Source: Bdellovibrionales bacterium RIFOXYD12_FULL_39_22 (GTDB lineage: Bacteria; Bdellovibrionota; Bacteriovoracia; Bacteriovoracales; Bacteriovoracaceae). From it: DNA of 64,000 bases. The notes under the pieces are model-generated. The model had not been told where the DNA came from. It was given only the letters and a program-made list of their open reading frames with translations, and did no database searches. Each line of letters opens with the position of its first letter. The first letter of the stretch is position 1. A program made the position numbers and the translations under genes. The DNA is taken from NCBI GenBank assembly GCA_001770205.1, contig MEQL01000037.1:1-64000 (forward strand), in the 5' to 3' direction. Below are positions 27,642 to 46,241 of the stretch, in pieces.

Positions 27642-27664
27642 TTGTGGAAAAAAAGTTGTCATAG

Positions 27665-27696
27665 AGTTGTCGAGCACGCCATCGTGCTCGACAACT
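27665..27696. repeat. Perfect 14-bp inverted repeat between convergent genes (terminator-like)
   Basis: AGTTGTCGAGCACG-ccat-CGTGCTCGACAACT; no U-tract directly adjacent. Confidence 0.8.
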
Positions 27697-27726
27697 GAAA
27701 GGATGTTTATAATCTAGGGCAGTGAA

Positions 27727-28155
27727 TTAATTGTATTCGCAGTGTTGGTTTGTATATTGCCAGTTATGTTCTCGAACCAACCAAACATTGTCATTATTAT
27801 CAAAAAGATGATCAATTCCGTTAGTGATGTATGTCTTTATGTTTGCCGAATTACCATGATATTCAATACCCTCGGTATATTTATCGAAAAAAAAGAGCAA
27901 AAAATTTCCCACATCAACTATATCGTCTGGTGTAGAAGTTTCGTTTCCGACAATCTTTACTTGATAGTTTTTATAATGTTTTGCAATCAGATCTTTTGAA
28001 ACTGCTATCGTGGCGCTAAGAAAATTTCCACTACTACCAGTGATAATATTGCCGGCGCTTACGACAAAAATATTACAATTGCGGTCATCATATTCCGCGG
28101 CGTCAACCGCATAATTCATCATAATAAGTATTAAAAATGATAGAAGTGATTTCAT
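27727..28155 (-). CDS. Hypothetical secreted protein
   Basis: AGGAG RBS, signal peptide ending VDA, two Cys near the termini. Confidence 0.7.
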   Translation of the reverse strand: MKSLLSFLILIMMNYAVDAAEYDDRNCNIFVVSAGNIITGSSGNFLSATIAVSKDLIAKHYKNYQVKIVGNETSTPDDIVDVGNFLLFFFDKYTEGIEYHGNSANIKTYITNGIDHLFDNNDNVWLVREHNWQYTNQHCEYN

Positions 28156-28202
28156 AGATAATCTCCTGGTTATTGTTTAAAGTATTTCAAAGTTTGGCCA
28201 TT

Positions 28203-28496
28203 CTAATGATCTGTTGAAAAAGGTGGTTTGTTGGATTGATCAGAGCACTCGGCATGATACATACCATTTAAACACTCATTTAAAGATGAATAGCGGAGTG
28301 TACTACGTTCTTGATGGTATCCACCAGGGCATCCGTACCTTGGATCTCCGTTACAAACTGATTGGATTATTGAAAAAGAGTATCCGTCGATTTCTTCGCC
28401 ATTAAGATAGATTTTTTCTAAAATGCATGGTGTGCAATAATCAGCAGCATAAGAGATAGACCCAATCAGAATAATTCCAATTAATAATTTAATCAT
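28203..28496 (-). CDS. Small secreted Cys-rich protein (6 Cys)
   Basis: AGGAGAGG RBS; signal peptide ending SYA. Confidence 0.7.
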   Translation of the reverse strand: MIKLLIGIILIGSISYAADYCTPCILEKIYLNGEEIDGYSFSIIQSVCNGDPRYGCPGGYHQERSTLRYSSLNECLNGMYHAECSDQSNKPPFSTDH

Positions 28497-28610
28497 TTTT
28501 TCCTCTCCTTTTTGTTTGGTTTGTTGAATCTTGTAATTTATAGCACAGCTTGGAGGATTATAAATATTTTTATTTAAAATTGAAATAATTACATATATAA
28601 TGCTAGTTGT

Positions 28611-29234
28611 ATGGTTAAAACAAATAAGTCACTTGAAGCAAAGCAAAAAATCTTGGCCGGTCTAATACGGCTTGCTTATAAAGAAGGTATTGATAGTGTT
28701 ACATACCAAAAAGTGGCCGATGAAGTTGGTCTTAGTTATTACCTAGTACACTACTACTTTGCCAAAGGCACTAACACGCTTTTAGATGAAGGGATTGCTT
28801 ATGTAGGGAAGCGGGCCCAGGAATATATCAGCAACTATATTTCCAATGTTGCAAAAGAATCTAATGTGGTTATGATTCACCAATATATACTGGGGACTCT
28901 TAATTGGGGCCGTGATTTTCCTGATGAAAGTAGTTTTTGGGCATATTATTATCATCTTTGCTCGCGAAGAAGTGATATGGCAAAATTCAATCAAGAGGTT
29001 ACTCGCGTTGCCCAAAAAAGAGTGGAGCGATTGATTCGTGAAGATATCGGAAGTGAGCATTTTCCTTTTCAAAACAACATCCCGGAATTGGCAGAAGATC
29101 TACATACCTATATTGTTGGAGCAACGATAAAATATCTTACCAATCGAAATGATCAACAATTTGATCATGTAGTTAAGCAATCTTGGCGTTTTGCCGAGAA
29201 GTTATTTACGCTACATGCGCGTAAGTTTGTTTAA
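28611..29234 (+). CDS. TetR/AcrR-family transcriptional regulator
   Basis: N-terminal HTH EGIDSVTYQKVADEVGLSYYLVHYYF. Confidence 0.88.
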   Translation: MVKTNKSLEAKQKILAGLIRLAYKEGIDSVTYQKVADEVGLSYYLVHYYFAKGTNTLLDEGIAYVGKRAQEYISNYISNVAKESNVVMIHQYILGTLNWGRDFPDESSFWAYYYHLCSRRSDMAKFNQEVTRVAQKRVERLIREDIGSEHFPFQNNIPELAEDLHTYIVGATIKYLTNRNDQQFDHVVKQSWRFAEKLFTLHARKFV

Positions 29235-29254
29235 TAAAAAGCTAGATTAATTAT

Positions 29255-30451
29255 ATGAAGGTTTTGCTTATTGTTTTCGTTGCTTGTGTCTTTTGTGGTT
29301 GTGCGACTCTCGGTAAGCGTATTCCTGCGCAAATGTCGGATGCTTTTGTTGGTAATCACGCTTGTAGAGATGCGGCCATCAATCTTCTTGAAAAATCTTT
29401 TCTGAATCCACGAGAATACCCGATTAACACTAATCTAAAAACGTTTTTTTTTGAAGCATTAGAAAAAGATTCGGTAGAATCATATAAAACAACAAGACGT
29501 ACTTTTTGGGAACACTATGCCAATGAGTATTTATCTTTTTCTTTGCGCCCTTTTGGAACTTACGAAAAGGTTGTGATAAAAAATGAATTTCCTCAAATAC
29601 CTATTATTACAATCAATAAAGGTCTTTCTTCTCAGACGATTATGAAACGCCTGGCCCAATTGATAACAATGAGCAAATTTCGCAGCGGACAAATAACAAA
29701 GGATAAGGTACCGGCCATATTTAAAGATCGGTGTCTAAAGTTTGGTAATATGGATGGAGAAACTATGGCATTTCTTCATCCGGGAATATGGAAAGAATTA
29801 AGTCAGGAGCTTGCATTTAGTGATATTGTTCAATTTGGGCCACAGGAAAATGCGTATAATAATATTTCTGCGATATTTGCAATTTTACTAAATGAATACC
29901 GATTTAGAAGAAATTTTTCAGAAAATCGCCTGAAGTGGATCATGGACTCTGAAAAAACATTAGAGATTGATCGAATGATTTTTTTTCAGGTAGAAAACGA
30001 TGATGGGTGGTTGGAGGAGTTTATTCGGATTTATCGAGGGGATGGTATTGATTTTTTACTTCCTCTTGAACGACATGCGCAAATCTCTGTGCCAGAAAAA
30101 AATAAAATTGAAATTGGGCGCGCGTTATCGCTAAAATTTAATGAAACACAAGACAAAACTTTCGCGGATATTATGATAGAGATTGGAACATTTATAGATA
30201 AGGCCTATCTTTCAAAGGGTGAAGAAGTTGGTGTTTACATTCATACCGATGCCATCGGGAAGCGCGCATTTAGTAAATATGGTTTTGAGGATTTTGCTGG
30301 CCCGATGGGAGAAGACGAATATGTTATGCGAATGAGTGGAGATAAACTTAAAGAGAAATATGGCAGTCGCTATCCATATTGGCAAAAAATCCTCAACGAA
30401 AAACCACAAATAAAATCTGAAATGCCTAATCGAAAAGACCTATTTGACTAA
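29255..30451 (+). CDS. Hypothetical lipoprotein, possible C-terminal GNAT-like domain
   Basis: Lipobox FCGC; C-terminal IEIGRA...VYIHT...RAFSKYGF pattern resembles a GNAT fold. Confidence 0.6.
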   Translation: MKVLLIVFVACVFCGCATLGKRIPAQMSDAFVGNHACRDAAINLLEKSFLNPREYPINTNLKTFFFEALEKDSVESYKTTRRTFWEHYANEYLSFSLRPFGTYEKVVIKNEFPQIPIITINKGLSSQTIMKRLAQLITMSKFRSGQITKDKVPAIFKDRCLKFGNMDGETMAFLHPGIWKELSQELAFSDIVQFGPQENAYNNISAIFAILLNEYRFRRNFSENRLKWIMDSEKTLEIDRMIFFQVENDDGWLEEFIRIYRGDGIDFLLPLERHAQISVPEKNKIEIGRALSLKFNETQDKTFADIMIEIGTFIDKAYLSKGEEVGVYIHTDAIGKRAFSKYGFEDFAGPMGEDEYVMRMSGDKLKEKYGSRYPYWQKILNEKPQIKSEMPNRKDLFD

Positions 30452-30505
30452 AGACTAAAATGCCTGATTTATTTTATAGTAGTCCTGGGCATTAAGTAGT
30501 AGTTA

Positions 30506-31399
30506 TCAAAATTTTAAAAGGGTCTGTTCGTTGATTGGAAATTGATGTGTGCCTTCACTGGTGCAGGCATATGCTCCAGAAATATTCCCAAACAACATGC
30601 ATCTTTCTATTGGTTGTTTGTGACAGTGGCCATACAGGAAGCTTGCGACAAAGGCATCTCCTGCCCCGTTGGTATCGATAATATCTTTTCCAATATCAAT
30701 GGCCGGAAAGTGTTGCAATAAAATGCCATCTCGCACGGAAAGATAGGCACCATCTTTACCGGCCATAATAATAATATATTTTGCTATCCCATTATTAAAA
30801 ATATCTAAAATAATCGCCTTTCGTTTGTTCGAGATTCTGACGTCACTCAAAAAAACAATATCAGCGAAGTAGGCAAAGTCTCGATGATAATTGTTTTTTC
30901 CATCCCAATCATGAAGATCGGTAGAAGTAGAACCGCTAAAAGCTTTGATTGTTTTGAAGGTTTGTTTGACATAATCCATGATAGAAAGATGAACATGCGC
31001 AGTATCTGGCAATAATAGATTTAAATATTGTTCGAGGGCCGCTGACTCAACTTCACTATGACGTGGATCATAAAACGACATTCTTTGACCTTTCTTATCG
31101 ACAAAATTAACACTTCTTTTTGTGCCGGCCGAGGTGAGGCAATAGGAAAATGGAATTTGGGCCTTTTCAAAATCTTTTTTGATCAAATCTCCCCCCCAAT
31201 CATCTCCAATAAGATCTAAAAGATGGGTGCGCATTCCCAGAAAATGACAACCGCGTACTACTCCATTACCTGTATGCGCCACATATTCTTTTATCGGGCC
31301 AACCAATAGAGCATCTTGATATTGAATCGGGAAGGTGTTGATCTTTATGATCTGGTCGATCCCCACTCCTCCGACTACTAAGACATCAATTTTCTTCAC
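30506..31399 (-). CDS. PfkB/ribokinase-family kinase, acarbose 7-kinase (AcbK/Mak)-like
   Basis: DVLVVGGVGID, AGTKRSVN, STDLHDWDG, DTNGAGDAF motifs are collinear with AcbK as recalled. GTG start 31399 with AAGGAG RBS. Confidence 0.85.
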   Translation of the reverse strand: MKKIDVLVVGGVGIDQIIKINTFPIQYQDALLVGPIKEYVAHTGNGVVRGCHFLGMRTHLLDLIGDDWGGDLIKKDFEKAQIPFSYCLTSAGTKRSVNFVDKKGQRMSFYDPRHSEVESAALEQYLNLLLPDTAHVHLSIMDYVKQTFKTIKAFSGSTSTDLHDWDGKNNYHRDFAYFADIVFLSDVRISNKRKAIILDIFNNGIAKYIIIMAGKDGAYLSVRDGILLQHFPAIDIGKDIIDTNGAGDAFVASFLYGHCHKQPIERCMLFGNISGAYACTSEGTHQFPINEQTLLKF

Positions 31400-31409
31400 T
31401 ACGGTCTCC

Positions 31410-32678
31410 TTAAAAAATTTGTCGAAAAAGCTCATCACTCATTTTTAGTTCAGAAAAATAGGAATGAATTTTATTTTGGGCCTTTATCATTGGGTTAATT
31501 ACACCGGCCTCCATTATGATATCTTTATCCTTTGCCAGAATCCCTTGCAGTAATAATAATTCCGCCTTTTTTAATTGTCTTAGGTGTGGATAGGTTCTTT
31601 CGTCTATGCCAATTTTTGCACTATAATCTTTTATTTCGAATGTTCCCCCAGCAAAAGACACGTTCGTTTCGACAATAGTGTCTTTTGTACCCAGTGCGAA
31701 GGGATCACTCTTTAAGGATACATTTAAAATGTGATTCCCTGAGCTATCCAGGATATTTTTTATCAGAGGAACCACCGCTAGTAAGTACCAATCACTGGAT
31801 CTTTTTCGTAGGATGGGAGGAACTTGAAATATGCTTGGCCGTTTATTATCCATGTTTTTATAAAATTCATGTTCGATATCAACAAGTAGTTGGGCGCGAT
31901 TTATGCTTTGCTTGTTTTGCTTTCCAATTATAATTTCTGGATTGAAGATAATATCCCAATTAGGGATCATCAGCGCAGGAAAAAGACTTTGATCTTTTGC
32001 TTTTGGCCGGAAGGGCGTTTCTTGGTTATGTTTTACAAAATCCGCATAGATTGATTTGCCATCAAGATAAATATCCCAAACTGAGGCGATATGATTTAAT
32101 CCAAAGTAGTCAATTGTCAGCTTTGTCTGATCAATACCCATATAGTTGGCAATCGCATTTTTGAGGCCAAGAGGATAGTCACAAACGCCAATCATGTTCA
32201 GGCCAAAGCTAGCAACTGCGTATTGCGTGATAATGCTACAGGGGTTGGTAAAGTTAATCAGGTGATATCTATTTTTTTTCCCTGACAGCATCTCAAAATA
32301 GGGGGTGATACCCGTAATGGCGCGGATGGCATTTGACATTCCGACTATTCCTAGCGTCTCATCTGCGATCAGTTGATTTTTTATTGCAATTTTTTCATCG
32401 AGATTGCGCTTTTCTATCCCACCAAAACGAATCTGGTTAAAAATGATATCGTAATCTGATGATAGTGAATGTTCAAAAGTAGTAGAAAAATTAATTCTCA
32501 CTGCATAGCGGTGTTCCAGCGGTGACAATAAGGACACCAGATACTTTAATTTTTTTTCATCTCTTCCAAATAGCGTAATGAGATGGAACGAATCAAGACA
32601 TTCGCTCTGTACTAGCGCTTCAAATAGAAGGGGGATATAGATGCTACTACCTCCCCAGATGGCAAGCCCTTTTTTCAT
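31410..32678 (-). CDS. GH4-family NAD+-dependent glycoside hydrolase fold protein (6-phospho-glucosidase-like, divergent)
   Basis: GGSS, QIRFGG..R..DE, ADETLG, NFTNP, GVCD, GLNH motifs. Confidence 0.85.
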   Translation of the reverse strand: MKKGLAIWGGSSIYIPLLFEALVQSECLDSFHLITLFGRDEKKLKYLVSLLSPLEHRYAVRINFSTTFEHSLSSDYDIIFNQIRFGGIEKRNLDEKIAIKNQLIADETLGIVGMSNAIRAITGITPYFEMLSGKKNRYHLINFTNPCSIITQYAVASFGLNMIGVCDYPLGLKNAIANYMGIDQTKLTIDYFGLNHIASVWDIYLDGKSIYADFVKHNQETPFRPKAKDQSLFPALMIPNWDIIFNPEIIIGKQNKQSINRAQLLVDIEHEFYKNMDNKRPSIFQVPPILRKRSSDWYLLAVVPLIKNILDSSGNHILNVSLKSDPFALGTKDTIVETNVSFAGGTFEIKDYSAKIGIDERTYPHLRQLKKAELLLLQGILAKDKDIIMEAGVINPMIKAQNKIHSYFSELKMSDELFRQIF

Positions 32679-33861
32679 ATTTAGAGGCCAAGGTTAATTT
32701 ACAATTGGAGATAATGTTCATATCTGCGATGGCCTGTCGTAAAATGGCAGGGTCAAAATCGGATATACTAAAAATGAAAGAGGCATGGCCAATATCCAAT
32801 GGGATCACCAGGTTGAAATCTCCATTTTTTCTAATGATAGTTTTTTCCACCCCCATCCATAAATTATCAAAGGTGCAAATCTCAGCGTCAAAAATTGGCA
32901 GGCCGATGTTGGTTAATAGGCCAATAATTCTTTCGAATGCTTCCAGACCTAGTTTCCCAAGCAAATAAGCAATCCGAGAAGAGATGGCCATGTCAATTGC
33001 AACGGCCTCCCCGTGCTTATAACGATAGACGCTTGTCATTTCTATTTGTGGACTAAGAGTGTGGCCAAAATCAACTAGTCGCTTTGTGTCAGTTTCATAA
33101 AGATTTGGCCGCAACTGAGCGGCCATGCCAGTGATTGAATCTGAAATTATATCGCAATCTATCTGTTTCATTTTGGAAAGATCAAATTTGTGTTGCATGA
33201 TATTTTGAAATCTCTGTTCTAGCATTTCAAAAAGTTGACGATTTAAAATGATTCCCATTTTTATCATTTCAGATAGCCCACATCGAATTTCTCGATCATT
33301 TAATGTTTTTAGGAAAGATGGATCGTTGATTGATAGTAATGGGAATTTATATGTACCGATTTCATTTTTGCTTTCATGGAAATTGACTGCGGCCTTTATG
33401 CCAACCCCTACATCAACCTGCGCAACTAATGTCGTATTTATTTTAATATAATCTACAGACTTTTTATAAATGGATGCTGCTAGCCCAACCGTATCTAAAA
33501 CAATCCCACCACCAATAGCAATAAAAATTCCTTGTCGATCAATTTTGTAATCTTGTGCCGCCTTACAAATTTCTTGAACCGTGTGGAGATTTTTATTTTC
33601 CTCTCCTGTTTTGATTTGCAAAAAATTAACATGTCCTTGAAGTGGAAAAAAGTAATTAAAATATGCTTGTATTTTTTGGCCATAAAGCTTGCTGACAGTT
33701 GGCCCAGAAATGATAAGTATTTTTCGGCCTTTGCATCTTTCATACAAAAAAGAATTTTCGGGAGAAAAAAGATTTTGACATGAAATGACCTGATAGGTTT
33801 TTAAAATACGCTCTTCAATTTGAGCGAGTTGAGTTATGCTATCATGTTTATCATCTGCCAT
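32647..33861 (-). CDS. Sedoheptulose 7-phosphate cyclase, 2-epi-5-epi-valiolone synthase (AcbC/ValA-like)
   Basis: DHQS-superfamily GGGIVLD, TTLVAQVDVGVGIK, KNEIG; EEVS-type signatures QLRPNLYE and RLVDFGH; KHGEAV. ATG 33861 with GGAG RBS. Confidence 0.88.
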   Translation of the reverse strand: MADDKHDSITQLAQIEERILKTYQVISCQNLFSPENSFLYERCKGRKILIISGPTVSKLYGQKIQAYFNYFFPLQGHVNFLQIKTGEENKNLHTVQEICKAAQDYKIDRQGIFIAIGGGIVLDTVGLAASIYKKSVDYIKINTTLVAQVDVGVGIKAAVNFHESKNEIGTYKFPLLSINDPSFLKTLNDREIRCGLSEMIKMGIILNRQLFEMLEQRFQNIMQHKFDLSKMKQIDCDIISDSITGMAAQLRPNLYETDTKRLVDFGHTLSPQIEMTSVYRYKHGEAVAIDMAISSRIAYLLGKLGLEAFERIIGLLTNIGLPIFDAEICTFDNLWMGVEKTIIRKNGDFNLVIPLDIGHASFIFSISDFDPAILRQAIADMNIISNCKLTLASKYEKRACHLGR

Positions 33862-33947
33862 AGGCAAATCTCCGTTCGATTGCGAAATAGGTACAGTCTA
33901 AAAAAAAATAAATCGTACGACAAGCTCAATAAAATAGTGTCAAAATA

Positions 33948-35147
33948 TTACAGTAGTTGCCTATATATTTCGAAAGTATCTTGTATTAACTTATCAAATT
34001 GTGGAAGTTGAAACGTGTAAGGTGTTGTTAATGGACGATTATTGATATGATTCTGAACATCTATCATTGCCTGGCAAAATCCTGTTATATCCAGTGGATT
34101 TATAATTCGGAGAGCTTCTTTTTGGCCACTATTTGGAATTAATTCCGCAATGCCACAGAATTGAGAAAGAAGCAGAGGGCGATTTAGGGTGATCGCATCG
34201 TAGGCAACCATATTAAAAGGGTCATATAAACTTGGAATTATAACAATATCACAATTTGCTAAAAATTGAAGATATGTCTTTCTATCTGATTGCCAATCAA
34301 ATAGCTGGAGCTTTTTACTTCGTATTAGTTGGTGGTAACGAATTTCATTTTCTCGGTCCAGGCATTCAGCGAGTGTTGCAAAGCGACACTCCGAAAAATT
34401 ATTCATTACGAAAAGCTCGCCCTCATAGTTTTGTTGATAAAGATAGAAGGCCTCAATCAATTCTTGAAGCCCTTTGCGATAATCCCAGCGCCCAGCGTAA
34501 CCAAATCTTGTGGTCTTGTGTCGGCCGTTTAAATCCTTCTGATTATTATTGTTGGCAGCACGAGAAGGCGGATAAATACAGCTCACTGGACAGCTAAAAT
34601 TTCGGTGATAAAGCTCTGCAATTTTCTGGTCAAACCGACTATTAAAAATTAGATGATCTGCGCAATCAAACATATCCTTTTGTGCTGTTACTGATTGATT
34701 AAAATTTGTTTTTTTTGTATTTTTGTTAATGATGTATTCATGCTGGATGATGGAAGAAATCCAGTAGATGATCTTTGGCCGAATGCCAGGAGTTGCCTTC
34801 AAGCGCTTTATTAGCGATCCCCAAAAATAGCTAACAGAGATAACTAGATCAAAAGATTTGAGCTTCGCAAAAATTTCATCACCACAATCAAAACAATTAA
34901 CACTCTCAAATTGTACTTCATTGTAATAGTCATTTATTTCAAAATTTTCCATCGTCTTTTTATATGAAATATCATCACGGCCACTCTCAATATGTGAAAA
35001 TATTTTGATGGCGGATAGATTAAAATTATGGTTAATTTGTTCCAAGAGGAGCGAAACGTAGTAATTTATCGCTAGGTTGTGGCCCTTAAGATAATTCAGG
35101 GACAAAAAAGCAATCGATATTTTTTTTTCCTCTTTAACTTGCTTCAT
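33948..35147 (-). CDS. GT-B (GT4-like) glycosyltransferase
   Basis: YAGRWDYRKG and IPSLYDPFNMVAYDA C-terminal motifs. Confidence 0.82.
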   Translation of the reverse strand: MKQVKEEKKISIAFLSLNYLKGHNLAINYYVSLLLEQINHNFNLSAIKIFSHIESGRDDISYKKTMENFEINDYYNEVQFESVNCFDCGDEIFAKLKSFDLVISVSYFWGSLIKRLKATPGIRPKIIYWISSIIQHEYIINKNTKKTNFNQSVTAQKDMFDCADHLIFNSRFDQKIAELYHRNFSCPVSCIYPPSRAANNNNQKDLNGRHKTTRFGYAGRWDYRKGLQELIEAFYLYQQNYEGELFVMNNFSECRFATLAECLDRENEIRYHQLIRSKKLQLFDWQSDRKTYLQFLANCDIVIIPSLYDPFNMVAYDAITLNRPLLLSQFCGIAELIPNSGQKEALRIINPLDITGFCQAMIDVQNHINNRPLTTPYTFQLPQFDKLIQDTFEIYRQLL

Positions 35148-35233
35148 ATTTAGGTCAAATTATTTCTTATGCTGTCAACAACGTCAATAGCGTGTATATA
35201 TTAGTTTGATCTGTTAAAAATTAGAGGTGGTTC

Positions 35234-36832
35234 ATGCATATAGTTGAGTGTTTTATCGAGGCCGGTGGTTTTGACTATAATCTTATTCGAGGTGGGATCT
35301 CCGTCTATATTTGGAATCTAGCACGAAAATTCAAACAACATGGCCACAAAGTATCTGTTGTTACGGCCGCTAACGGACAAATTCCCTATTTAAAAAGTAA
35401 GTATCATTTAAAGGAACTTAACTATAAACATCAGTATGTGCTGCCTTTAGTGCTGGATCAGGCCATTTGGAAAAATCACCCTGCCCAAGTAGACATTTCT
35501 CTTTCTACCAAGGCCTTTCAGGTGGAGATTGATGGAGTTGAATTTTATTTTTTGTCCAACGAATATTTAGATATGTATCCAGCAAGCTGCTTTCCCCCTT
35601 ATGAGAGCAAGGGGAAAGAGCTTGGTTTTTTTAAGCCAATAGTTTATCAGGTTGATGCCATAGAATTTATCAAGCAGTATTTTAAAAATGAAAAGTGCTA
35701 TTTGCATGCGCATGAGCCCTACTATCAATATCTTTTTCCCCTTGCATTTAGAGACGATAATTTAAAAGCTATGATTAGTACCGTTCAAAGTAATATGCCA
35801 ATTAATAAAAAAATATATCGTCCGAAGCTTGAAAAAATTCTATCCTTGCTGGGAATTTCCGTAGATCTAGATCAATACATGGATAAATTAGATGAGCAAG
35901 ATCCGGAAGTCATCAAAATGAGAAAAACACTACCGATCACTCATTTGTTTTATAACTATGATGATAAAAAATACATCAACTTTTACTCTCTCATGTTGGA
36001 CCATTCCGATAAGATTGATTTTCTTTCCGAAGGGCATCTGGAATTTTACACGAGCTTTGCAAACACTCCTTTTGAGTTCTTTTTTAAGAAACTCAAAGTT
36101 TCTCACTTCGTTGAAAAAAAGCGAGAGAAGTTATTTGTAGGTTGGTGTGGAACTTCCGATGAGTGGCTGAGCAAGGCCCCAGACAAAAGCGGTCGAAAAA
36201 AGACCTTGGATGCATTAGGGTTGAAAGATAATCTTCCAACATTCTATCATAACGCTCGCTTTGCTATAAACCATAAGGGGCAATATGAGCTAATGCAGGC
36301 AATTGATCGTTTCCTTTCCGCAGGAGGAGAGGCCAACTTTATAGTACGTTGTCTTTGTTCTAAAGGAATTGAATTTCCATATTTTCATGAAGTCAAAAAT
36401 AAATTCCCCCATAATGTATATCTTGAGTGGGAAACCAAGGCCGTGGAAACACTTATGCGCCACGTTTCGGCCAGCGATTTTTGTATCTTCCCTTCAAAGT
36501 TTGAAATGGATACGTTTTTAATTGCGCAGGGAGAAGCAATGTTTTTTGGACTAGTTCCAATTGCTACCAACCAAAAAGGGATGCAGCATTGGAATCATCA
36601 TCTACCGATTGAGCATCTGGAGGCCACTGGTTTTGCACTTAAGAGATCTTTTGAAGAAAATGACCAGCAATTGGTGGCAGAGATTGTCGATAGAATCAGG
36701 GATGCTATTGCTCTAAAGCAAGATGCCGCTGAAACTTATGTCAAGCTTTCCAACAATTCAAAGGAGCTGGCAAAAAAATATAGCTGGGAGCATGCCGCAC
36801 AGGCACACTTAGACGCCTTCCGCTCTATCTAA
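35234..36832 (+). CDS. Glycogen-synthase-fold (GT5-like) glycosyltransferase, AcbS-like pseudo-glycosyltransferase
   Basis: GGISVYIWNLA, PPYESKG..FFKP, HAHEP, STVQSNMPINK, FYHNARFAINHKGQ, FPSKFEMDTFLIAQGEAM match the acarbose-cluster GT as recalled; GAGGTG RBS. Confidence 0.82.
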   Translation: MHIVECFIEAGGFDYNLIRGGISVYIWNLARKFKQHGHKVSVVTAANGQIPYLKSKYHLKELNYKHQYVLPLVLDQAIWKNHPAQVDISLSTKAFQVEIDGVEFYFLSNEYLDMYPASCFPPYESKGKELGFFKPIVYQVDAIEFIKQYFKNEKCYLHAHEPYYQYLFPLAFRDDNLKAMISTVQSNMPINKKIYRPKLEKILSLLGISVDLDQYMDKLDEQDPEVIKMRKTLPITHLFYNYDDKKYINFYSLMLDHSDKIDFLSEGHLEFYTSFANTPFEFFFKKLKVSHFVEKKREKLFVGWCGTSDEWLSKAPDKSGRKKTLDALGLKDNLPTFYHNARFAINHKGQYELMQAIDRFLSAGGEANFIVRCLCSKGIEFPYFHEVKNKFPHNVYLEWETKAVETLMRHVSASDFCIFPSKFEMDTFLIAQGEAMFFGLVPIATNQKGMQHWNHHLPIEHLEATGFALKRSFEENDQQLVAEIVDRIRDAIALKQDAAETYVKLSNNSKELAKKYSWEHAAQAHLDAFRSI

Positions 36833-37825
36833 AAATATTCCCATGCCGATTAAGCAGGGCTCTTTTTCGCTTGCTAATGTAAACATGGTTTCGACTTGAT
36901 TTTCGTTTAATCCAAACAACGCAAATCGTTTAATTTGTTTTATGAGTGAGCTTAGGTAACGCGTGCCAATTGCCTGCGCAAAACCACCGAAGATTATATA
37001 GCGCCGAATACCGATGGCCGCATAGATAAGTCCGATTGCCTCAGAAAGTGGAGCAGTCGTTTGATCTAAAATATCTGTGGTAAAAGGATCATCTTCTAAA
37101 ATGGCCTGAACAATGTGATGTGTAGTTAAGTCCTGGGCCTTAGGGCACAAAGCTGAGAGTTTTGAATTAATAAATTTTTCTGGCGATTTTGCTGATTCCA
37201 ATTTAACCTTGGCCAAAACGCCTCGACCAGAGGCAATTGCTCCCAAATGACCTTTGCCTCCACAATCACAAAGCGGAGCATTTTCAGAATGGTCGCACGT
37301 ATAGTGGCCAATTTCTCCGCCATATCCAGTATCATTAATCAAAATAGAATTATTATAAAAAACTTTGTTGCCAATTCCAGAGCTTACCGTAATGGCACAA
37401 AAGGGTTCATTTTCCGAAGAAGCAAAATACCACGTAGCGGCGCTAACGTCGTTGATGGCCACGACATCTCTTTGCATTTTTTTCTTTAAAATTTTTTTTA
37501 AATTCAAATCAATGTTTAGGTTGCCAGTTATTGTGGGGGCCCGATGAATAACCCCTTGAGGAGAGACCGGGCCGGCAAAAGCGATTCCAATTTTAGAAAA
37601 AGTAAATGAGCTGTTTTCCTCTATGTATGTTTCCATATTAAGCAATAGATGATTAATGAACTTATCTTCCAAATTATTCTGACTGTCTTGCCTAGTGGCC
37701 AAGTAATTAAGCGTTTCAATTTTTTTAATGGCAGTTATTTTTTGTACAGAGGGGATATAAGTGGCCAAGCGAAAATATGTTCCCCCAAGGTCAATAACTA
37801 GATATGCGTTTTCTTTCATAGGCAC
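36809..37825 (-). CDS. ROK-family cyclitol kinase (AcbM/ValC-like)
   Basis: DLGGT, NDVSAA, TVSSGIGNKV, GGEIGH, CDCGGKGHLGAIASGRG. Start may be ATG 37819. Confidence 0.85.
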   Translation of the reverse strand: MPMKENAYLVIDLGGTYFRLATYIPSVQKITAIKKIETLNYLATRQDSQNNLEDKFINHLLLNMETYIEENSSFTFSKIGIAFAGPVSPQGVIHRAPTITGNLNIDLNLKKILKKKMQRDVVAINDVSAATWYFASSENEPFCAITVSSGIGNKVFYNNSILINDTGYGGEIGHYTCDHSENAPLCDCGGKGHLGAIASGRGVLAKVKLESAKSPEKFINSKLSALCPKAQDLTTHHIVQAILEDDPFTTDILDQTTAPLSEAIGLIYAAIGIRRYIIFGGFAQAIGTRYLSSLIKQIKRFALFGLNENQVETMFTLASEKEPCLIGMGIFLDRAEGV

Positions 37826-37826
37826 A

Positions 37827-38939: not shown

Positions 38940-38945
38940 AAAATC

Positions 38946-40424
38946 CTATTCTCCCTTTGAGTCGAGTTGAGTACTTGTTGGTATGTTTTTTAGAAGATAG
39001 GAGATATCGACATATTTAAATTGCCCCCGGCCGTTATAGGAATAATTATATTCTAACTCTTTTAAAAGCCGAGAGTAATAGCAAATCATTTCAAAGATTC
39101 GAAGATTTTCTTTCCCATAACTATTGCTGATGAGTGACTCTACTTTTTCCATCCACAAACTAGTAGCTAAAATCAAATTTTGCAGTTTTTTACTGCTACT
39201 TGAAAAATCCATGTCATTTAGTAGCAACATGATGATCTCATCTTTATCTGCCCATGGCGGAATCATCTTGGCCACAACATCTTGTAGTTCACTATATGAA
39301 AAATACTCAATTGATCTTTTGATTGAAACCAAATCCACCAGCGTTGATTGGGGTCTAATTCCATCACTATCAAAAATTTGCGGGTCGATAAAAGCGACTC
39401 GTTGATCCTCTCCAATAATAATATGAGACATGTGTAAATCGTTGTGGGCGTCAGTGGCACTGGGAATTAGTTTCTCTTTATTTTTGTCAACATATTTATA
39501 AAAACTTATAAGCTCTGATAGCGCGTTAGCAATTATTTTATGGTATTTGTCAAACTGCTTGTCTTTATTGATCAACGCTGAAAGCCACTTTATTTTTTCT
39601 AAATCGCTGCTTATAAAATCGAAGTTGGCAAAATTATTGTTTTTTGAATTTAATAAAGTGTGATAGCGCCGCAAATCATCACCAATCTTTACAAGCAGTG
39701 CTCCCAGCGATTCATCGATAGCATTGCTTACGATGTTTGCAATGTTAACTTTTTTTTCATCTCCTGTTACGATGGATGAAAAAATTTGTCTTATGCTTTT
39801 TCGAAGTACCACGTCTAGACTATCTCCAGTAAAAAACTCTCTAATCTCTATCAGTCGAAACTTTTCTCCGCGTGTCCTATTGTTGTAGGCAAGAGTGGCC
39901 AGGGTAGTATCGTGCAACGCCCTATCCCAATAATTGAAACAATCTCCACCTTGCACATGATTTAATCTCTTTAAAATTTTGCAGGTGAGATGTCTTCCTT
40001 CGGCATTAAAATAGAAGTTGTGATTAGTTGATTCTGGCAAGACTTTCAAATTTTTCAAATCCAATAGATCCTTTTGAATGAATGCTCCGTGAAACTCAAT
40101 CGTGGCCCCTCCCGCCGTGGCCAAGCTTTTTATGGCGGCCAGATGGGCAATTACAAAAAGCCCTGATAGGGGAGAAGATTCCATCTCGCGAATAACCAAA
40201 CCATCTCGGACAATAATGGGGATGAAATAGTATAAATCTTTTGTTGATGCTTTTGCGTTTACTATTATCAAGTATACGCTTTCGTTGTTTTCGATTTGAA
40301 ATGATGCATAGTCATAAAGAGAAAATTGTAAATCATAAGATGCGAGATCTCCAAACCACCGTTTGGTTCTAATAAATTCTGGAAGTTTCTCTGTAACAAA
40401 TTTTTTTAGTGTTCTATCAATCAT
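38946..40424 (-). CDS. Maltokinase/APH-fold kinase, AcbU-like cyclitol 1-kinase
   Basis: N-cap KRWFG, ESTN, HNDLH, FIDP, DLVSIKRSIEY, ELEYN motifs; sits between the AcbV-like and AcbR-like genes. Start moved to ATG 40424. Confidence 0.75.
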   Translation of the reverse strand: MIDRTLKKFVTEKLPEFIRTKRWFGDLASYDLQFSLYDYASFQIENNESVYLIIVNAKASTKDLYYFIPIIVRDGLVIREMESSPLSGLFVIAHLAAIKSLATAGGATIEFHGAFIQKDLLDLKNLKVLPESTNHNFYFNAEGRHLTCKILKRLNHVQGGDCFNYWDRALHDTTLATLAYNNRTRGEKFRLIEIREFFTGDSLDVVLRKSIRQIFSSIVTGDEKKVNIANIVSNAIDESLGALLVKIGDDLRRYHTLLNSKNNNFANFDFISSDLEKIKWLSALINKDKQFDKYHKIIANALSELISFYKYVDKNKEKLIPSATDAHNDLHMSHIIIGEDQRVAFIDPQIFDSDGIRPQSTLVDLVSIKRSIEYFSYSELQDVVAKMIPPWADKDEIIMLLLNDMDFSSSSKKLQNLILATSLWMEKVESLISNSYGKENLRIFEMICYYSRLLKELEYNYSYNGRGQFKYVDISYLLKNIPTSTQLDSKGE

Positions 40425-40425
40425 T

Positions 40426-41724
40426 TTACTTTTCCGGCCCAATTGTCCTCAGAACTTTTTTCATCCTTTCTAAAACTTCCATCAACACATTTTCTTCTGT
40501 TATAAAAGGAGGGGCCAGGCGAACAATATTGCCACCAAGACTCACCTTTATCCCATCTTTTATGCACTTTAAAAAAAATTGCCTTGCATAATTAGCTGAT
40601 GGCCTTTTTGAGTTTTTATCTTCGACAAACTCGATTGCGTGTAAAAGACCTATTCCACGAACATCTCCTACAAAGGAAAATTCATCCATCATCTGCTGCA
40701 ATTTTATTGAAATAATTTCACCTAGCTTTACAATATGCTGGCCCAAATTGAGGCGGGATAGTTCTTTTAATGTAGCAGCGGCGGCGGCCAGGCCCAGTGG
40801 ATTAGAAGCAAACGTTGAAGAGGATGAACCTGGAGCACTGAACTCATGGGAGTTTAAAATTTCTTTCTTTCCTGCCAAAACTGCGAAAGGAAATCCCGAG
40901 GCCAATCCTTTGGCCATTATCACCAGGTCTGGATTGATATTATAGTAGGAAGAGGCCAAAAATGATCCAACTCTTCCACCGCCAGTGACTACTTCATCCG
41001 CAACAAGCAATACTCCATTTTTTTGGCAGGCCCGGGAAATAATATCCCAGTATTCTTTTGGTGGGACGATCACGCCACCGGCCCCCTGTATTGGTTCAAA
41101 AAAAAGTGCGGCAACACTTTGGTTTTGACAGACTTCCGCCTCTACTTTCTGAGCACAAAGTATTTCGCATGATGGATATGAAAGAGAGAATGGACAGCGA
41201 TAGCAGTAAGCACGATATGCCAAAACAGAATCGGCCGGCAGTGAATTATTTCCAATTTTCCAATGAACCAGCATTCTGGCGCCTAACGTTTTTCCATGAA
41301 AACCATAACGAAGGGCGGCAAGTTTGGATCGTGCAGGTGATGCAAAACAAAATATTGCGCGAATGGCCGCCTCTACAGCTTCTGCCCCCGTAGTTAAAAA
41401 ACAGAAAGTGTCTATTTCCGCTGGTAAATTTTCCGCCAGTATTTTACAACACTCCAACCTCGGGGGAGTAGTAAAGTCATGCACATTCCATAATTTTTCA
41501 ATTTGCTTATGCAACGCTTCTCTAACAAATGGATTATTATGGCCAAGTGATTGGGTAAATATTCCGGAAGCAAAATCAAAATATTTTCTCCCCTCGATAT
41601 CATAAACATAAACCCCTTCGCCTCTTTCTAAAACTACGCGAGACAGCAAGGCCTCTTCTGAAATGCCAGCGACAAGATGTTTTTGTTCTTCGAAAATATA
41701 TTGATCTTGTATTGAATCACTCAT
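40426..41724 (-). CDS. Class III PLP aminotransferase, AcbV-like
   Basis: DFASGIFTQSLGH, LWNVHDF, TGAEAVE, FHGKTLGARMLVHW, YCYRCP, EPIQGAGG, DEVVTG, AKG (PLP lysine). Confidence 0.88.
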   Translation of the reverse strand: MSDSIQDQYIFEEQKHLVAGISEEALLSRVVLERGEGVYVYDIEGRKYFDFASGIFTQSLGHNNPFVREALHKQIEKLWNVHDFTTPPRLECCKILAENLPAEIDTFCFLTTGAEAVEAAIRAIFCFASPARSKLAALRYGFHGKTLGARMLVHWKIGNNSLPADSVLAYRAYCYRCPFSLSYPSCEILCAQKVEAEVCQNQSVAALFFEPIQGAGGVIVPPKEYWDIISRACQKNGVLLVADEVVTGGGRVGSFLASSYYNINPDLVIMAKGLASGFPFAVLAGKKEILNSHEFSAPGSSSSTFASNPLGLAAAAATLKELSRLNLGQHIVKLGEIISIKLQQMMDEFSFVGDVRGIGLLHAIEFVEDKNSKRPSANYARQFFLKCIKDGIKVSLGGNIVRLAPPFITEENVLMEVLERMKKVLRTIGPEK

Positions 41725-42143: not shown

Positions 42144-45100
42144 ATGATAAAATTTAAAGAGAAGCATTTTTGTCTCCTCTTTTTCGTTCTACTAATCGCC
42201 ACAACTTCGCAGGCGATGGAGCTAAAAAAGACGGTGATGGTTCATCTTTTTGAATGGAGATGGACGGATGTAGCACAAGAGTGCGAAAAATTTCTAGGGC
42301 CCAATGGATTTAGTGCTGTGCAAATATCTCCACCCAACGAGCACGCTGTAATTAAAAATTATCCATGGTGGCAGCGATATCAATTTGTCAGTTATAAATT
42401 GGAAAGCAGAAGTGGCAACAGGCAGGAGTTTGTTGATATGGTGCAAAGATGCAATAAAGCGGGAGTTGCTATTTATGCCGATGTTACTTTAAATCACATG
42501 GCCGGATCATTTGGCCCGGATGATAGTGAACGAGTTGGATATGCGGGAAGCAAATTTGCCCACTATAACTATCCCGGTATTTATGAAAGGAGCGATTTTC
42601 ATTATTGCCAAAAACAAAACGATTCTTCACGCGAAATTAAAAGCTATAAGGATGCGTGGGAGGTGCAAAATTGTGAGCTGGTCTCTTTGGCCGATTTAGA
42701 TACTGCCTCAGAAAAAGTTAGAAGTACCCTTGCGGCATTTTTAAATGATTTGATTAGCATTGGAGTTCGCGGTTTTAGAATAGATGCTGCCAAGCATGTC
42801 TCGCCGGCGGACACAACGGCGATATTAGCAAAAGTAAGCAGTAAACCTCATATCTTCCAAGAATTTTATAATATCCCAGGGGAGCCATTTGATGTAAATC
42901 AATTCTTGCAAAATGGAGATGTGATTGAGGGGAGTTTTGGATATAGATTAACCGCTGCCTTTTTAAGAGATAAAATGATCACCCATGTAAAAGACATTGA
43001 ACAGGGACTGATTGATTCAAAAAGAGCGATCACCTTCGTTGACAATCATGATAAGCAACGAGAGATTAACTATTTAACGTATAAGCAAGGCAATCTTTAC
43101 GATATGGCCAATATTTTTATGCTCGCTTATCCCTACGGTTATCCGGTGATAATGTCAGGGTATCGCTTTGATCTAAAAGATCAGGGCCCTCCCTCGGACC
43201 AAAATGGAAATACAAAGCATATATATATCAAGGGAAAATTTCTATGCACTGAAATTGGTTTTTCCTGTGAACACCGAAAAAGACCGATTAAGAATATGAT
43301 TAGTTTTAGAGAATATACTGCGGGAGAAAAAGTAATCGACTGGTGGACAAACGATTTTAATCAATTTGCATTTGCTCGAGGCCGCAAAGGCTTTGTGGCC
43401 TTCAATAATGAAAACACAACACTGCAAAGGAAGTTAAGCACCCATCTTCTTCCTGGACGGTATTGCGATATTATTAGTGGGGACTTTGATTCTAAAAGTA
43501 AAACATGTACCGGTAATATTGTTGACGTAAATAACGAGGGTGTGGCCTTAATAATTCTCCCTCCTCATACATCATTGGCGATCTATGAAAAGGCCCGGAT
43601 GGAGACTCAAATAACACTCGTAGGAAATCTGCAAAAAACTTTAGGTGATTTTTCGGACTGGAATCCTTCTTCTTCTAAAACCAGGATGGAATATCTTGGC
43701 AGTGGGCTATATCATTTTAAAACCTTTCTTCCCAAAGGATCATATGAATACAAATTTGCCATAGGTGGCAGTTGGTTAGAAAATTACGGGCAAAATGGAA
43801 CTCTTTCCGGAAAGAATATTCCCCTCGTTGTTCCCGAGGGCCAAGAGATCATTTTTTATTTTAGCGATAAAACGCATAAAGGTACTTCTAGTCTAGATTA
43901 TAAATTACAAAGTAATCCGCCAGTGCTTTTTTTATCAGACGAGCGGATGATAAAACTAGTAGATCACAGCTTTAACAATCTTTTTTACACCACGGTAACT
44001 TTGCAAGATGGAAATTATAATTTTGTGGTGCAATATCAAAATAATAAATATCCACTTCCGCCCTTGAAATTAAATAGAATTCAAGATGTTTCGCTCTATT
44101 TCGATTTAAGCAAACTAGAGACATCTTTTGACTTACATACACTGGAAGAAGCTCAAATCCTTCATGATAGCTTCAATGATCTCTATCGAAAACCATTTCA
44201 TGCCATTGAAGAAAACGAAGCGATTACTATCAAGCTCTCAGTAATTCCAAACAAGTTAAAGAAAGTAGAACTTTTTTTGGTACAAGAAAATATTCAAAAG
44301 CGAGATAAGGTTGAATATACGGAATATAAGACTATTTCCATGAAAAAAACGGCAGAAAGTGATTTGAGGGAGTTTTGGTCTGCAACACTTACCTTTCCTG
44401 AAAAAGGAGTATATGGATATAAATTTCTCATTAACGGTAATGAAGAATATGGTGACGATCAATTTCCAGGAGGTGTTGGCCAACTATATAAAAAAGATGG
44501 CCGATATTTTCAGATTACGGCATATGATAAAAACTTCCACCCACCAGAGTGGTTGCAGCAGGGAATTATCTATCAAATTATTCCGGATCGTTTTTATAAT
44601 GGTGATTCCAAGAATGATTATGTAAAAAAATATGCGCGAGGCCTTGATCCTATTTTTCATAGTCAATGGAATGCGATTCCCTCCAATGGCGGGCCACTTG
44701 ATCACGATTCTTTTTACTGCAATGATTACTACGGAGGAGATTTACAAGGTATAATTTCCAAACTGGATTATCTGCAAGCAATGGGAGTTTCCATTATATA
44801 TCTTAATCCTATTTTTAACAGCGGATACAACAGTAAATATGATACTGGAGATTATCTTTCAATTGATCCAATGTTTGGAACAAATGATGAGTTTGCAAGG
44901 CTTGCTTCCGAATTACAAAAGCGTAACATGCGTCTCATCCTTGATGGAATTTTTAATCATGTCGGTGATGACTCTATCTATTTTGACCGTTACGAAAAAT
45001 ACCCTTGGGTAGGTGCTTACGAATATTGGAGCAAAGTCTATAAGAAAATTAATGATCAAAAACTATCAATTGAAGATGCAAAGAAAGCTACAACCCAAGA

Positions 45101-46241
45101 ACTTTTAAGTAACGGACAGAGGTTTCATCCATCAAATTGGCAAAACTGGTTTACCATCGAAAACAATTTTATTTCCACTCCAAAGAGAGGAGTGCCTCGT
45201 TTCCAATATGAGGAGTGGTGGGGATACGACAATCTGGCGGTGTTTAATGATCAAAGCGAATTAAATAATCCAGAATGGAGAAAATATTTTTTAGATGGCC
45301 CGGACTCTGTGGCGCAAAGATGGATTAGAGCTGGAAGCGCTGGATGGAGGCTAGATGTCGTTGCTGAGATGGATACAACCTTTATTAATAAATTTAGAAT
45401 GGCCGTCAAATCTCAAAAAACTTTAAGTGGAGATGAGCCTATTATTTTAGGAGAAGTTATTCCCGATGCTTCTCATTATTTGCTTGGTGATAAATTTGAT
45501 TCTGTCATGAATTATCGTTTTCTAAGGGCCGTAATAAAAGACTTTCTTGTTCGAGGTAAGGCGGAAGATGCTTATCAAATATTAACTAATGTTTTTCAAA
45601 GCTATCCACCAGAGGCACTAAGGGCAACAATGAATCTGCTTGATTCTCATGACTCCATGCGAGCAATTTATCAATTAGGTGGCGGGATTGCCAAAAAACA
45701 TTTGGTGGCAATCCCCGGGAAAAATTTTGACTACGAACTTGGAAAAAAAAGATTCAAAATAGCACTGGCCTTCATGATTGGCCTGCCGGGTGTCCCGACA
45801 ATCTATTATGGTGATGAAGTTGGTCTTTATGGTGGAGAAGATCCTGATAATCGCAGAACTTATCCTTGGGGACGAGAAGATGTTGGGTTGCTTGCATATA
45901 CAAAAAAAGTACTGAACTTTAGAAAAAAACATTCTGAGATTTTTTCTCGGGGAGATATCAAGACGTTGTACGCAAAAGGTGATGTCTATATTTTTAAACG
46001 ATCTTACAAAGATAGCGTTTTTATTTTTGGCCTTAACCGTGGAGATTCGATATTTGAAATGACTAAAGTTATTTCGGGGATCAATTTAAAAAAGTGGTGT
46101 GATATTATGCCGGAAAATAATAAGCAATATTTAGAGTTTTCGGTAGATCAAATTCCTCCGGCCTCTGTGCGCATTATTGAAAATTGCCAACATCGGCCAG
46201 ATACCCGAGTTTTACATTCGGGATTGTTTGGGAATGACTAA
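42144..46241 (+). CDS. Secreted alpha-amylase/amylopullulanase fusion with two GH13 catalytic domains
   Basis: Signal peptide (..TSQA). Domain 1: DVTLNH, GFRIDAAKH, FQE, FVDNHD. X25/CBM-like linker (DWNP..YEYKFA..W.ENYG). Domain 2: DGIFNH, GWRLDV, LGE, LLDSHD, YYGDE. Confidence 0.92.
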   Translation: MIKFKEKHFCLLFFVLLIATTSQAMELKKTVMVHLFEWRWTDVAQECEKFLGPNGFSAVQISPPNEHAVIKNYPWWQRYQFVSYKLESRSGNRQEFVDMVQRCNKAGVAIYADVTLNHMAGSFGPDDSERVGYAGSKFAHYNYPGIYERSDFHYCQKQNDSSREIKSYKDAWEVQNCELVSLADLDTASEKVRSTLAAFLNDLISIGVRGFRIDAAKHVSPADTTAILAKVSSKPHIFQEFYNIPGEPFDVNQFLQNGDVIEGSFGYRLTAAFLRDKMITHVKDIEQGLIDSKRAITFVDNHDKQREINYLTYKQGNLYDMANIFMLAYPYGYPVIMSGYRFDLKDQGPPSDQNGNTKHIYIKGKFLCTEIGFSCEHRKRPIKNMISFREYTAGEKVIDWWTNDFNQFAFARGRKGFVAFNNENTTLQRKLSTHLLPGRYCDIISGDFDSKSKTCTGNIVDVNNEGVALIILPPHTSLAIYEKARMETQITLVGNLQKTLGDFSDWNPSSSKTRMEYLGSGLYHFKTFLPKGSYEYKFAIGGSWLENYGQNGTLSGKNIPLVVPEGQEIIFYFSDKTHKGTSSLDYKLQSNPPVLFLSDERMIKLVDHSFNNLFYTTVTLQDGNYNFVVQYQNNKYPLPPLKLNRIQDVSLYFDLSKLETSFDLHTLEEAQILHDSFNDLYRKPFHAIEENEAITIKLSVIPNKLKKVELFLVQENIQKRDKVEYTEYKTISMKKTAESDLREFWSATLTFPEKGVYGYKFLINGNEEYGDDQFPGGVGQLYKKDGRYFQITAYDKNFHPPEWLQQGIIYQIIPDRFYNGDSKNDYVKKYARGLDPIFHSQWNAIPSNGGPLDHDSFYCNDYYGGDLQGIISKLDYLQAMGVSIIYLNPIFNSGYNSKYDTGDYLSIDPMFGTNDEFARLASELQKRNMRLILDGIFNHVGDDSIYFDRYEKYPWVGAYEYWSKVYKKINDQKLSIEDAKKATTQELLSNGQRFHPSNWQNWFTIENNFISTPKRGVPRFQYEEWWGYDNLAVFNDQSELNNPEWRKYFLDGPDSVAQRWIRAGSAGWRLDVVAEMDTTFINKFRMAVKSQKTLSGDEPIILGEVIPDASHYLLGDKFDSVMNYRFLRAVIKDFLVRGKAEDAYQILTNVFQSYPPEALRATMNLLDSHDSMRAIYQLGGGIAKKHLVAIPGKNFDYELGKKRFKIALAFMIGLPGVPTIYYGDEVGLYGGEDPDNRRTYPWGREDVGLLAYTKKVLNFRKKHSEIFSRGDIKTLYAKGDVYIFKRSYKDSVFIFGLNRGDSIFEMTKVISGINLKKWCDIMPENNKQYLEFSVDQIPPASVRIIENCQHRPDTRVLHSGLFGND

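Follow-up and report, generated by a model that had tools for sequence, protein, structure and literature searches.

What could a glycosidase-like protein be doing inside a gene cluster that appears to build sugar mimics? The question is raised by a 64,000-nucleotide stretch of DNA (the window) from Bdellovibrionales bacterium RIFOXYD12_FULL_39_22 (assembly GCA_001770205.1, contig MEQL01000037.1, positions 1 to 64,000), in which the gene for a protein of the glycoside hydrolase family 4 (GH4) fold, here called P0001, adjoins that of a ValA-like sedoheptulose-7-phosphate cyclase (Table 1). To our knowledge, GH4 enzymes are known only as glycosidases, which act via oxidation, elimination, addition, and reduction. 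The gene was probably recruited for a redox step on a sugar-mimic ring, and by analogy with acarbose biosynthesis we propose, giving the proposal about an even chance of being right, that P0001 is a putative cyclitol-7-phosphate reductase/dehydratase, derived from GH4, dependent on a metal and NAD(P), and analogous to AcbL/AcbN.

The open reading frame (ORF) of P0001 encodes 422 amino acids from an ATG start. Its start overlaps the 3' end of the upstream dehydroquinate synthase (DHQS)-like cyclase ORF by 32 bp, exactly as a first-pass annotation of this DNA had reported, and its end overlaps the downstream PfkB ORF by 29 bp; from this arrangement, the GH4-fold gene and the cyclase gene appear to be translationally coupled. 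The GH4 N-terminal domain (PF02056) was detected at 67 bits against a cut-off of 23.2, the C-terminal domain (PF11975) was not reported for P0001 at E ≤ 0.001, being present in its close relatives from loci L013 and L011 (see below), and the NCBIfam score was 68.7 against a cut-off of 486. The nearest solved structures are the 6-phospho-beta-glucosidases 1S6Y and BglT (1UP4/6/7), with E ~1e-26. An AlphaFold2 (AF2) model computed with 30 relatives reached a mean predicted local distance difference test score of 90.2 and a predicted template-modelling (TM) score of 0.91, and its top Foldseek matches were GH4 structures throughout (TM 0.81 to 1up6_B). We are confident, on the strength of this model, that P0001 has the two-domain, lactate dehydrogenase-like GH4 fold. 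A look-up in the ESM Atlas returned nothing beyond generic GH4 clusters.

Comparison with GH4 6-phospho-beta-glucosidases (BglT of Thermotoga maritima, 1UP6; the Geobacillus enzyme, 1S6Y; Gan4C, 5C3M) reveals the same fold (Foldseek TM 0.78-0.82), Gly-rich NAD motif, NFTNP motif, and Cys/His metal ligands at ~21% identity. P0001 differs from these enzymes in that it lacks the C2-base Tyr, carries Gly38-Arg39 in place of the Asp at strand beta2, has invariant residues specific to its own clade, and is encoded in a biosynthetic rather than a phosphotransferase-system or catabolic context. The GlvA/AglB 6-phospho-alpha-glucosidases (1U8X, 6DUX), which share the GH4 fold and the metal-site Cys-Asp pair (C166-D167 in P0001), are less similar (E ~1e-17). 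All motifs quoted in the first-pass annotation were located in the translation, namely G9-G10-S11-S12, N142-F-T-N-P146, G164-V-C166-D167, G193-L-N-H196, LMIPNWDIIF (residues 236-245; window positions 31944-31973), and RSSDWY (residues 293-298). In 1up6, the counterparts of C166 and H196 are chain residues 163 and 193, equivalent to native Cys162 and His192 of BglT, which PMC10755693 gives as the Mn2+ ligands. C166 and H196 are invariant in 35/35 members of the clade, GGSS is kept in all 32 clade sequences that span the N-terminus, and R84, R91, E107, N145, P146, C166, H196, R261, R293, and E337 are invariant across the clade and ordinary relatives alike. Because the NAD and metal motifs and these shared residues are kept, P0001 looks like an active rather than a decayed enzyme, as far as can be predicted from alignment.

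In ordinary GH4 proteins strand beta2 ends with an Asp, the place of which is taken by Gly38-Arg39 in P0001. We considered this pair as a clade-specific NADP(H) signature and rejected it, as it is also present in 60/186 other GH4-like matches; it hints at altered cofactor handling and is not diagnostic.

The first Tyr of the BglT motif NPYLRYY is Tyr241 (by the same 1up6 numbering offset as for Cys162/His192), which we take to be the base that abstracts the C2 proton; the corresponding base of GlvA is presumably Tyr265. Opposite Tyr241, hhalign (clade profile versus ordinary-GH4 profile) and phmmer to 1s6y both place N240, MAFFT places W241, and the proline-anchored alignment of the first-pass annotation itself places D242. 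None of the three is Tyr, and the absence is independent of alignment register; an hhalign comparison of the clade with the nearest 'CELP' branch was gapped at this segment and is uninformative. Across the 35 clade sequences, Ser, Ala, Asn, or Gly stands at position 240 and Trp at position 241 (34/34), position 242 varies, and no conserved Tyr occurs at 243-246, nor anywhere at 239-246. A P-x(0-2)-Y motif is found in the Tyr segment of 1/35 clade members, of 50/60 relatives of the 'GR' type, and of 119/126 other GH4 relatives. Given the difference between the first and last of these counts, loss of the Tyr is a clade-wide trait rather than a chance event and, judged by these alignments, is a property of the entire clade; the catalytic Tyr that on first pass appeared to be missing is indeed absent. 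Invariant Tyr168 was considered as a relocated base and discarded as not specific, since some ordinary GH4 proteins that have the Tyr motif read GLCNYP.

The clade itself is sharply delimited. Of 4816 candidates in a word-indexed search, 94 were homologues at E ≤ 1e-5; about 30 of these scored 224-328 bits at 33-43% identity, with the next falling to 119 bits. When 1.84 billion cluster representatives were searched exhaustively, 1330 matched at E ≤ 0.001 and only 19 of them at E ≤ 1e-30, with a gap in score from 173.5 to 134.6 bits. In a FastTree phylogeny of 138 sequences (33 from the clade, with P0002 and P0020 omitted as fragments, 60 'GR' relatives, and 45 of 115 Asp-type relatives), the clade forms a single branch (Shimodaira-Hasegawa-like support, 100) whose stem measures 1.34 changes per column. 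Its specific invariant residues include N81, A105, D106, D167, W241, N260, and E269, and C147 (in NFTNPCS), Y168, and C295 are near-invariant. At residue 295 (window positions 31794-31796) P0001 reads Ser where 33/35 clade members have Cys within R-[DN]-C-x-W-Y; C147 is kept. The uncharacterised 'GR/CELP' branch (e.g. P0037, P0072, P0086) has LFGRD, ADETL, and R-x-x-x-W-Y in common with the clade; it differs in mostly retaining P-x-x-Y (50/60 over the whole GR group) and forms a separate branch in the tree. This branch is large (P0037, P0045, P0072, P0081-P0093, and others), with the signatures LFGRD, ADETL, GxCELP, and PLKYF and with Gly-Arg at the end of beta2.

The clade gene was found in 4 loci in a collection of one genome per species (185,579 species) and in 10 loci in a metagenome collection, with Massilia, metagenome-assembled genomes of Pseudomonadota, and Paraneptunicella aestuarii as named hosts and a guanine-plus-cytosine (GC) content of the loci that spans 27% to 70%. 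It is single-copy in its own genome and was not found in any of 40 relatives of the source genome at E ≤ 1e-40. Together, this distribution points to horizontal spread. The locus most similar to that of the window, L013 (43% identity, 27% GC), has a phage-type integrase (L013:11501-12397) right after the GH4 gene, which suggests that this cluster is mobile. A dead GH4 relic, serving as a binding, scaffold, or regulatory subunit, would account for the one residue assigned as catalytic that is missing. It would be hard to reconcile with the persistence of at least 30 invariant positions, every cofactor and metal ligand among them, across loci of such disparate GC content, which argues for selection on an active site, and we regard it as scarcely credible.

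The genes among which the clade is found were surveyed by searching the proteins of the window cluster against the 14 related loci (L001-L014, of which L005 and L006 are near-duplicates) using tblastn. Upstream flanks could be counted in L001-L006, L008-L010, and L013, the other 4 loci beginning inside or at the GH4 gene. In 10/10 of these loci the GH4 gene has a ROK-family kinase gene upstream of it, no more than 2 kb away; a GlgC-like gene is present in nine and a GlgA-like gene in eight. A ValA-like cyclase is encoded in the fetched DNA of L002, L008, L010, L011, and L014, and in L003 and L001 on the same contig, ~0.7 kb and ~9.5 kb past the fetched edge, respectively; the tally extends to loci with enough DNA, contigs being shorter than 3 kb in L004, L007, and L009 and the flank limited in L005/6, L012, and L013. 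Every locus with enough DNA has such a cyclase nearby. Co-occurrence with genes for EEV (2-epi-5-epi-valiolone) synthase (EEVS) had been suggested as a check in the first-pass annotation, and co-occurrence with a ValA-like cyclase is seen in the window and seven related loci. The Tyr-less clade is seen solely within such clusters (10/10 loci with upstream flank). In the window the genes stand in another order, cyclase-GH4-PfkB, and the ROK gene is 4 kb off, which indicates that the GH4 gene is tied to the cluster rather than to a single operon.

Two types of cluster can be distinguished. In the first (window, L002, L003, and L013) cupin, aminotransferase, and maltokinase-like genes are present; in the second (L001, L005/6, L008, L010, and L011) none of the three occurs within 10 kb. 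Related loci also encode GH13 amylases and GH31 glucosidases, true GT5 synthases, an ABC-2 exporter, PhyH dioxygenases, and an acyltransferase; L001, L003, L005, L008, L010, and L011 carry GH13 and GH31 genes on the flanks of the GH4 gene, and L002 carries GH31 alone. A plain alpha-glucan utilisation island was considered and rejected, as the scores of the GlgC-, GlgA-, and ROK-like proteins fall far below housekeeping cut-offs and the genes co-travel with the cyclase, aminotransferase, and cupin genes. No dTDP-glucose synthase or 4,6-dehydratase (AcbA/AcbB) domain was found in the 14 ORFs at 24126-42167 or in the ORFs at 42144-52728, and with no dTDP-glucose 4,6-dehydratase there the cluster is not a strict acarbose (acb/gac) cluster. 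The ROK, GlgC-like, and GlgA-like genes match an acb-type cluster at the family level only, with conserved synteny.

When the window cluster and 9 related loci were annotated with Pfam, no short-chain dehydrogenase/reductase (SDR), alcohol dehydrogenase (ADH), aldo-keto reductase, or Gfo/Idh/MocA protein turned up inside the clusters, leaving the GH4-like protein as the sole nicotinamide-cofactor fold of the annotated clusters. It is on this ground that we infer a role as cyclitol reductase/dehydratase. As described in PMC9200736, the acarbose pathway comprises the AcbC cyclase, the ROK-like 7-kinase AcbM, the 2-epimerase AcbO, AcbL (yielding valienone-7-phosphate), AcbN (yielding valienol-7-phosphate), the 1-kinase AcbU, the 7-phosphatase AcbJ, and AcbR, which makes GDP-valienol, followed by the GlgA-like transferases AcbS and AcbI and the adenosine-kinase-like product kinase AcbK. 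The present clusters share with it the logic of cyclase, ROK kinase, GlgC-like, and GlgA-like genes, and candidates are present for the cyclase, 7-kinase, 1-kinase, nucleotidyltransferase, transferases, aminotransferase, product kinase, and epimerase (the cupin). The proposed job of P0001 is that of AcbL/AcbN (ValK/ValN in validamycin), from 5-epi-valiolone-7-phosphate via valienone-7-phosphate to valienol-7-phosphate. AcbL resembles an alcohol dehydrogenase and AcbN is a short-chain reductase; the folds of both are unrelated to that of P0001, and a single GH4-fold candidate is found here.

We suggest the following scheme, in which an enzyme with the GH4 fold would have given up glycoside cleavage and been recruited to the biosynthesis of a C7-cyclitol pseudo-sugar (an acarbose/validamycin-like glycosidase inhibitor). 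The ValA-like cyclase would convert sedoheptulose 7-phosphate to a keto-cyclitol, the C7-OH of which would be phosphorylated by the ROK kinase. The resulting 7-phospho-cyclitol would mimic the glucose-6-phosphate moiety bound by 6-phospho-glucosidases and, on that account, could occupy the retained GH4 pocket beside the nicotinamide and the Cys/His-bound metal. The metal would polarise the ketone and the neighbouring hydroxyl, NAD(P)H would reduce the ketone, and Asp167 may assist elimination of the tertiary C5-OH, giving a valienol-7-phosphate-like product, such that one enzyme would cover the work of AcbL and AcbN. Activation and coupling of the cyclitol would then fall to the maltokinase-like kinase, GlgC-like nucleotidyltransferase, and GlgA-like transferase. 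With the C2 base gone, unwanted elimination in the sugar-like ring would be averted. The substrate, the redox direction, and the inclusion of dehydration or epimerisation are all inferred. The role in a missing dehydration or reduction, raised on first pass, fits both the link with cyclase clusters and the status of sole nicotinamide-cofactor fold, and the role itself is putative.

Several points weigh against this proposal. Alignments by phmmer (to 1up6 and to 1s6y), MAFFT, and hhalign differ by one or two residues in how they set the Tyr segment, so that a compensating base (invariant D106, D167, or Y168) could still support elimination and hydrolysis. Dehydration needs a base too, and loss of the Tyr alone is consequently no argument for a dehydratase. 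In the usual GH4 pose the nicotinamide is at C3 rather than C1, and a cyclitol would have to shift or flip. Clusters of the second type have further pathway holes, which renders the hole-filling argument incomplete, and housekeeping reductases encoded elsewhere could perform the redox steps. P0001 itself, moreover, departs from the near-invariant Cys295.

Alternatively, the enzyme may still be a lyase or hydrolase, acting on a phosphorylated glycoside or pseudoglycoside by oxidation-elimination with a base other than the lost Tyr. Here, a ROK or PfkB kinase would phosphorylate the product, or an alpha-glucan fragment, at its terminal 6/7-OH, and the GH4-like enzyme would remove or trim that unit for self-protection, recycling, or maturation. 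Every GH4 core residue bar the Tyr is kept, including the invariant Asp167 that follows the metal Cys and that we take to be equivalent to the acid/base of GlvA; alpha-glucan enzymes (GH13, GH31, GT5) are abundant in the clusters, and an AcbK-type PfkB kinase adjoins the gene in the window and in L003. The ROK kinase BglK and a GH4 phospho-glucosidase form a known functional, catabolic pairing (PMC10628242), from which the cyclitol module could also have been derived. On the other hand, the C2-base motif is gone clade-wide, with no conserved acid or base in the Tyr segment, the PfkB kinase occurs in two loci only whereas the GH4 gene is in all, and the gene is set among biosynthetic genes and, in the window, seemingly coupled to the cyclase. 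Trimming of a phosphorylated product, the other role envisaged on first pass, is weakened by the loss of the Tyr base; we retain it as an alternative that is unlikely.

Loss of the C2 base would halt the GH4 cycle after oxidation, as expected of a stand-alone 3-dehydrogenase that uses NAD+ to oxidise the C3-OH of a 6/7-phosphorylated sugar or cyclitol and passes the ketone to the class-III aminotransferase, much as NtdC supplies a ketone to NtdA in kanosamine synthesis. An aminotransferase gene is indeed found in the window cluster, L002, L003, and L013. It is lacking within 10 kb of the GH4 gene in L001, L005, L006, L008, L010, and L011, and the cyclase product already has a ketone for transamination; we consider such a function improbable. 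Loci without the aminotransferase might make ether-linked products, a C-O-forming activity having been reported for the pseudoglycosyltransferase ValL in PMC12041759.

A metal site kept beside vicinal oxygens, and the lack of a cupin, the alternative epimerase, in clusters of the second type, would suit a C2 epimerase analogous to AcbO that acts via a metal-stabilised enediolate, with a structural or transient cofactor. C2 epimerisation, however, requires proton abstraction exactly where the lost Tyr acted, and the complete NAD-binding motif is conserved; this activity is very improbable, and the missing epimerisation proposed on first pass is less favoured, the cupin being the better candidate.

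Features of the window cluster are listed in Table 1.

Table 1. Coordinates, strands, and assignments of features in and around the window cluster.
Position	Strand	Feature	Basis
31410..32678	-	GH4-fold protein P0001 without catalytic Tyr; candidate cyclitol-7-phosphate oxidoreductase/dehydratase	Pfam, PDB, AF2, Foldseek, tree
32647..33867	-	Sedoheptulose-7-phosphate cyclase, ValA (EEVS) type	Pfam DHQ_synthase and DHQS_C
30506..31438	-	PfkB/ribokinase-family kinase; candidate AcbK-like product kinase or further cyclitol kinase	Pfam PfkB, 82.6 bits
33948..35147	-	GT-B glycosyltransferase (GT1/GT4-type, weak GT20 match)	Pfam
35234..36832	+	Divergent GlgA-like (GT5-like) transferase; candidate AcbS/AcbI-type (pseudo)glycosyltransferase	Weak Pfam Glyco_transf_5
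36809..37825	-	ROK-family kinase; candidate cyclitol 7-kinase (AcbM/ValC-like)	Pfam ROK, 106.6 bits
37827..38939	-	GlgC-like sugar-1-phosphate nucleotidyltransferase; candidate AcbR/VldB-like NDP-cyclitol synthase	Pfam NTP_transferase
38946..40442	-	Maltokinase-like (APH-fold) kinase, 498 amino acids; candidate pseudo-anomeric 1-kinase (AcbU analogue)	Profile match
40426..41724	-	Class-III (GabT-like) aminotransferase	Pfam Aminotran_3, 285 bits
41721..42167	-	Small cupin; candidate cyclitol epimerase/isomerase	Pfam Cupin_2
42144..46241	+	GH13 alpha-amylase, 1365 amino acids, with pullulanase X25 domain, divergent from the cluster	Pfam
28611..29234	+	TetR-like regulator at cluster edge, weak	Pfam TetR_N, 21.5 bits, below cut-off of 24
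29255-30451	+	Protein of 398 amino acids with lipoprotein-type signal peptide (…VFCGC)
24126-27641	+	Class II (B12-dependent) ribonucleotide reductase, 1171 amino acids, with TSCPD domain

The best PDB matches of the cyclase are ValA 4p53 (207 bits), followed by DDGS 5tpr (194 bits). It reads LVDFGH as in ValA, where DDGS has VIAYGH, and carries an Arg at the 'tvkHrdg' position, at which ValA has His and DDGS Thr; owing to this substitution its product may differ from that of a typical EEVS. The cyclase, labelled an EEVS gene on first pass, is ValA-like and may be called EEVS-like, with EEV or a related cyclitol as its possible product, DDGS being close.

In the Massilia locus L003 the PfkB homologue is placed between the ROK and GH4 genes. 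No homologue of the GT-B glycosyltransferase was found in the related loci by tblastn, and the homologues of the GlgA-like protein there share 44-53% identity with it; this protein gave an NCBIfam glgA score of 43 bits against a cut-off of 328 and no PDB sequence match. The GlgC-like protein scored 220.8 bits for NCBIfam glgC, under the cut-off of 424.9. The maltokinase-like protein gave no Pfam match alone, and a 4-homologue profile (the protein and three syntenic homologues) matched the mycobacterial maltokinase 4O7O at E 4.8e-7; its HGDLH motif is invariant among the homologues, and the L003 homologue matches PF01636 at 4e-8. Aminotransferase homologues share 53-59% identity, and cupin homologues adjoin the aminotransferase gene in L002 and L013. 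In L013, a 633-amino-acid radical-SAM protein (L013:1978-3879) is encoded between the aminotransferase and maltokinase-like genes. Acarbose clusters contain amylases, which the GH13 genes flanking the present clusters recall. At the other edge, the putative lipoprotein gene adjoins the weak TetR-like gene; no family was detected for its product, nor any solved relative by PDB sequence search or homologue in the related loci. The ribonucleotide reductase gene marks the cluster boundary and appears to be ordinary housekeeping.

The fold and its cofactor chemistry are known; what appears new, by analogy with the systems compared here, is a putative non-hydrolytic biosynthetic role together with the cluster family. 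A full-text literature search of partial coverage brought up no paper that connects GH4 with cyclitol clusters or describes such Gram-negative clusters, and the accessible part of the published account of the Burkholderia kirkamide/streptol clusters names ROK, HAD, and aminotransferase proteins and not GH4.

A clade that keeps the cofactor and metal of GH4 without the elimination base, and that is found in cyclitol clusters, would show that GH4 machinery can be reused for carbasugar biosynthesis. It is distinctly doubtful that one GH4-derived active site stands in for AcbO, AcbL, and AcbN together; if it does, this would be a new non-hydrolytic function for the GH4 fold, and Proteobacteria and the source bacterium would share a family of acarbose-like inhibitor clusters that is so far undescribed. 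The step that P0001 may catalyse, in which a keto-cyclitol phosphate becomes valienol phosphate, is the most recently resolved part of the pathway, and an alternative single enzyme could help to engineer the production of valienamine-type glycosidase inhibitors. The signatures of the clade (GICDYP, ADETLG, P-S-W, and R-[DN]-C-x-W-Y) offer a sequence marker for finding acarbose/validamycin-like clusters outside actinomycetes, and the hosts that bear it include culturable Massilia and Paraneptunicella.

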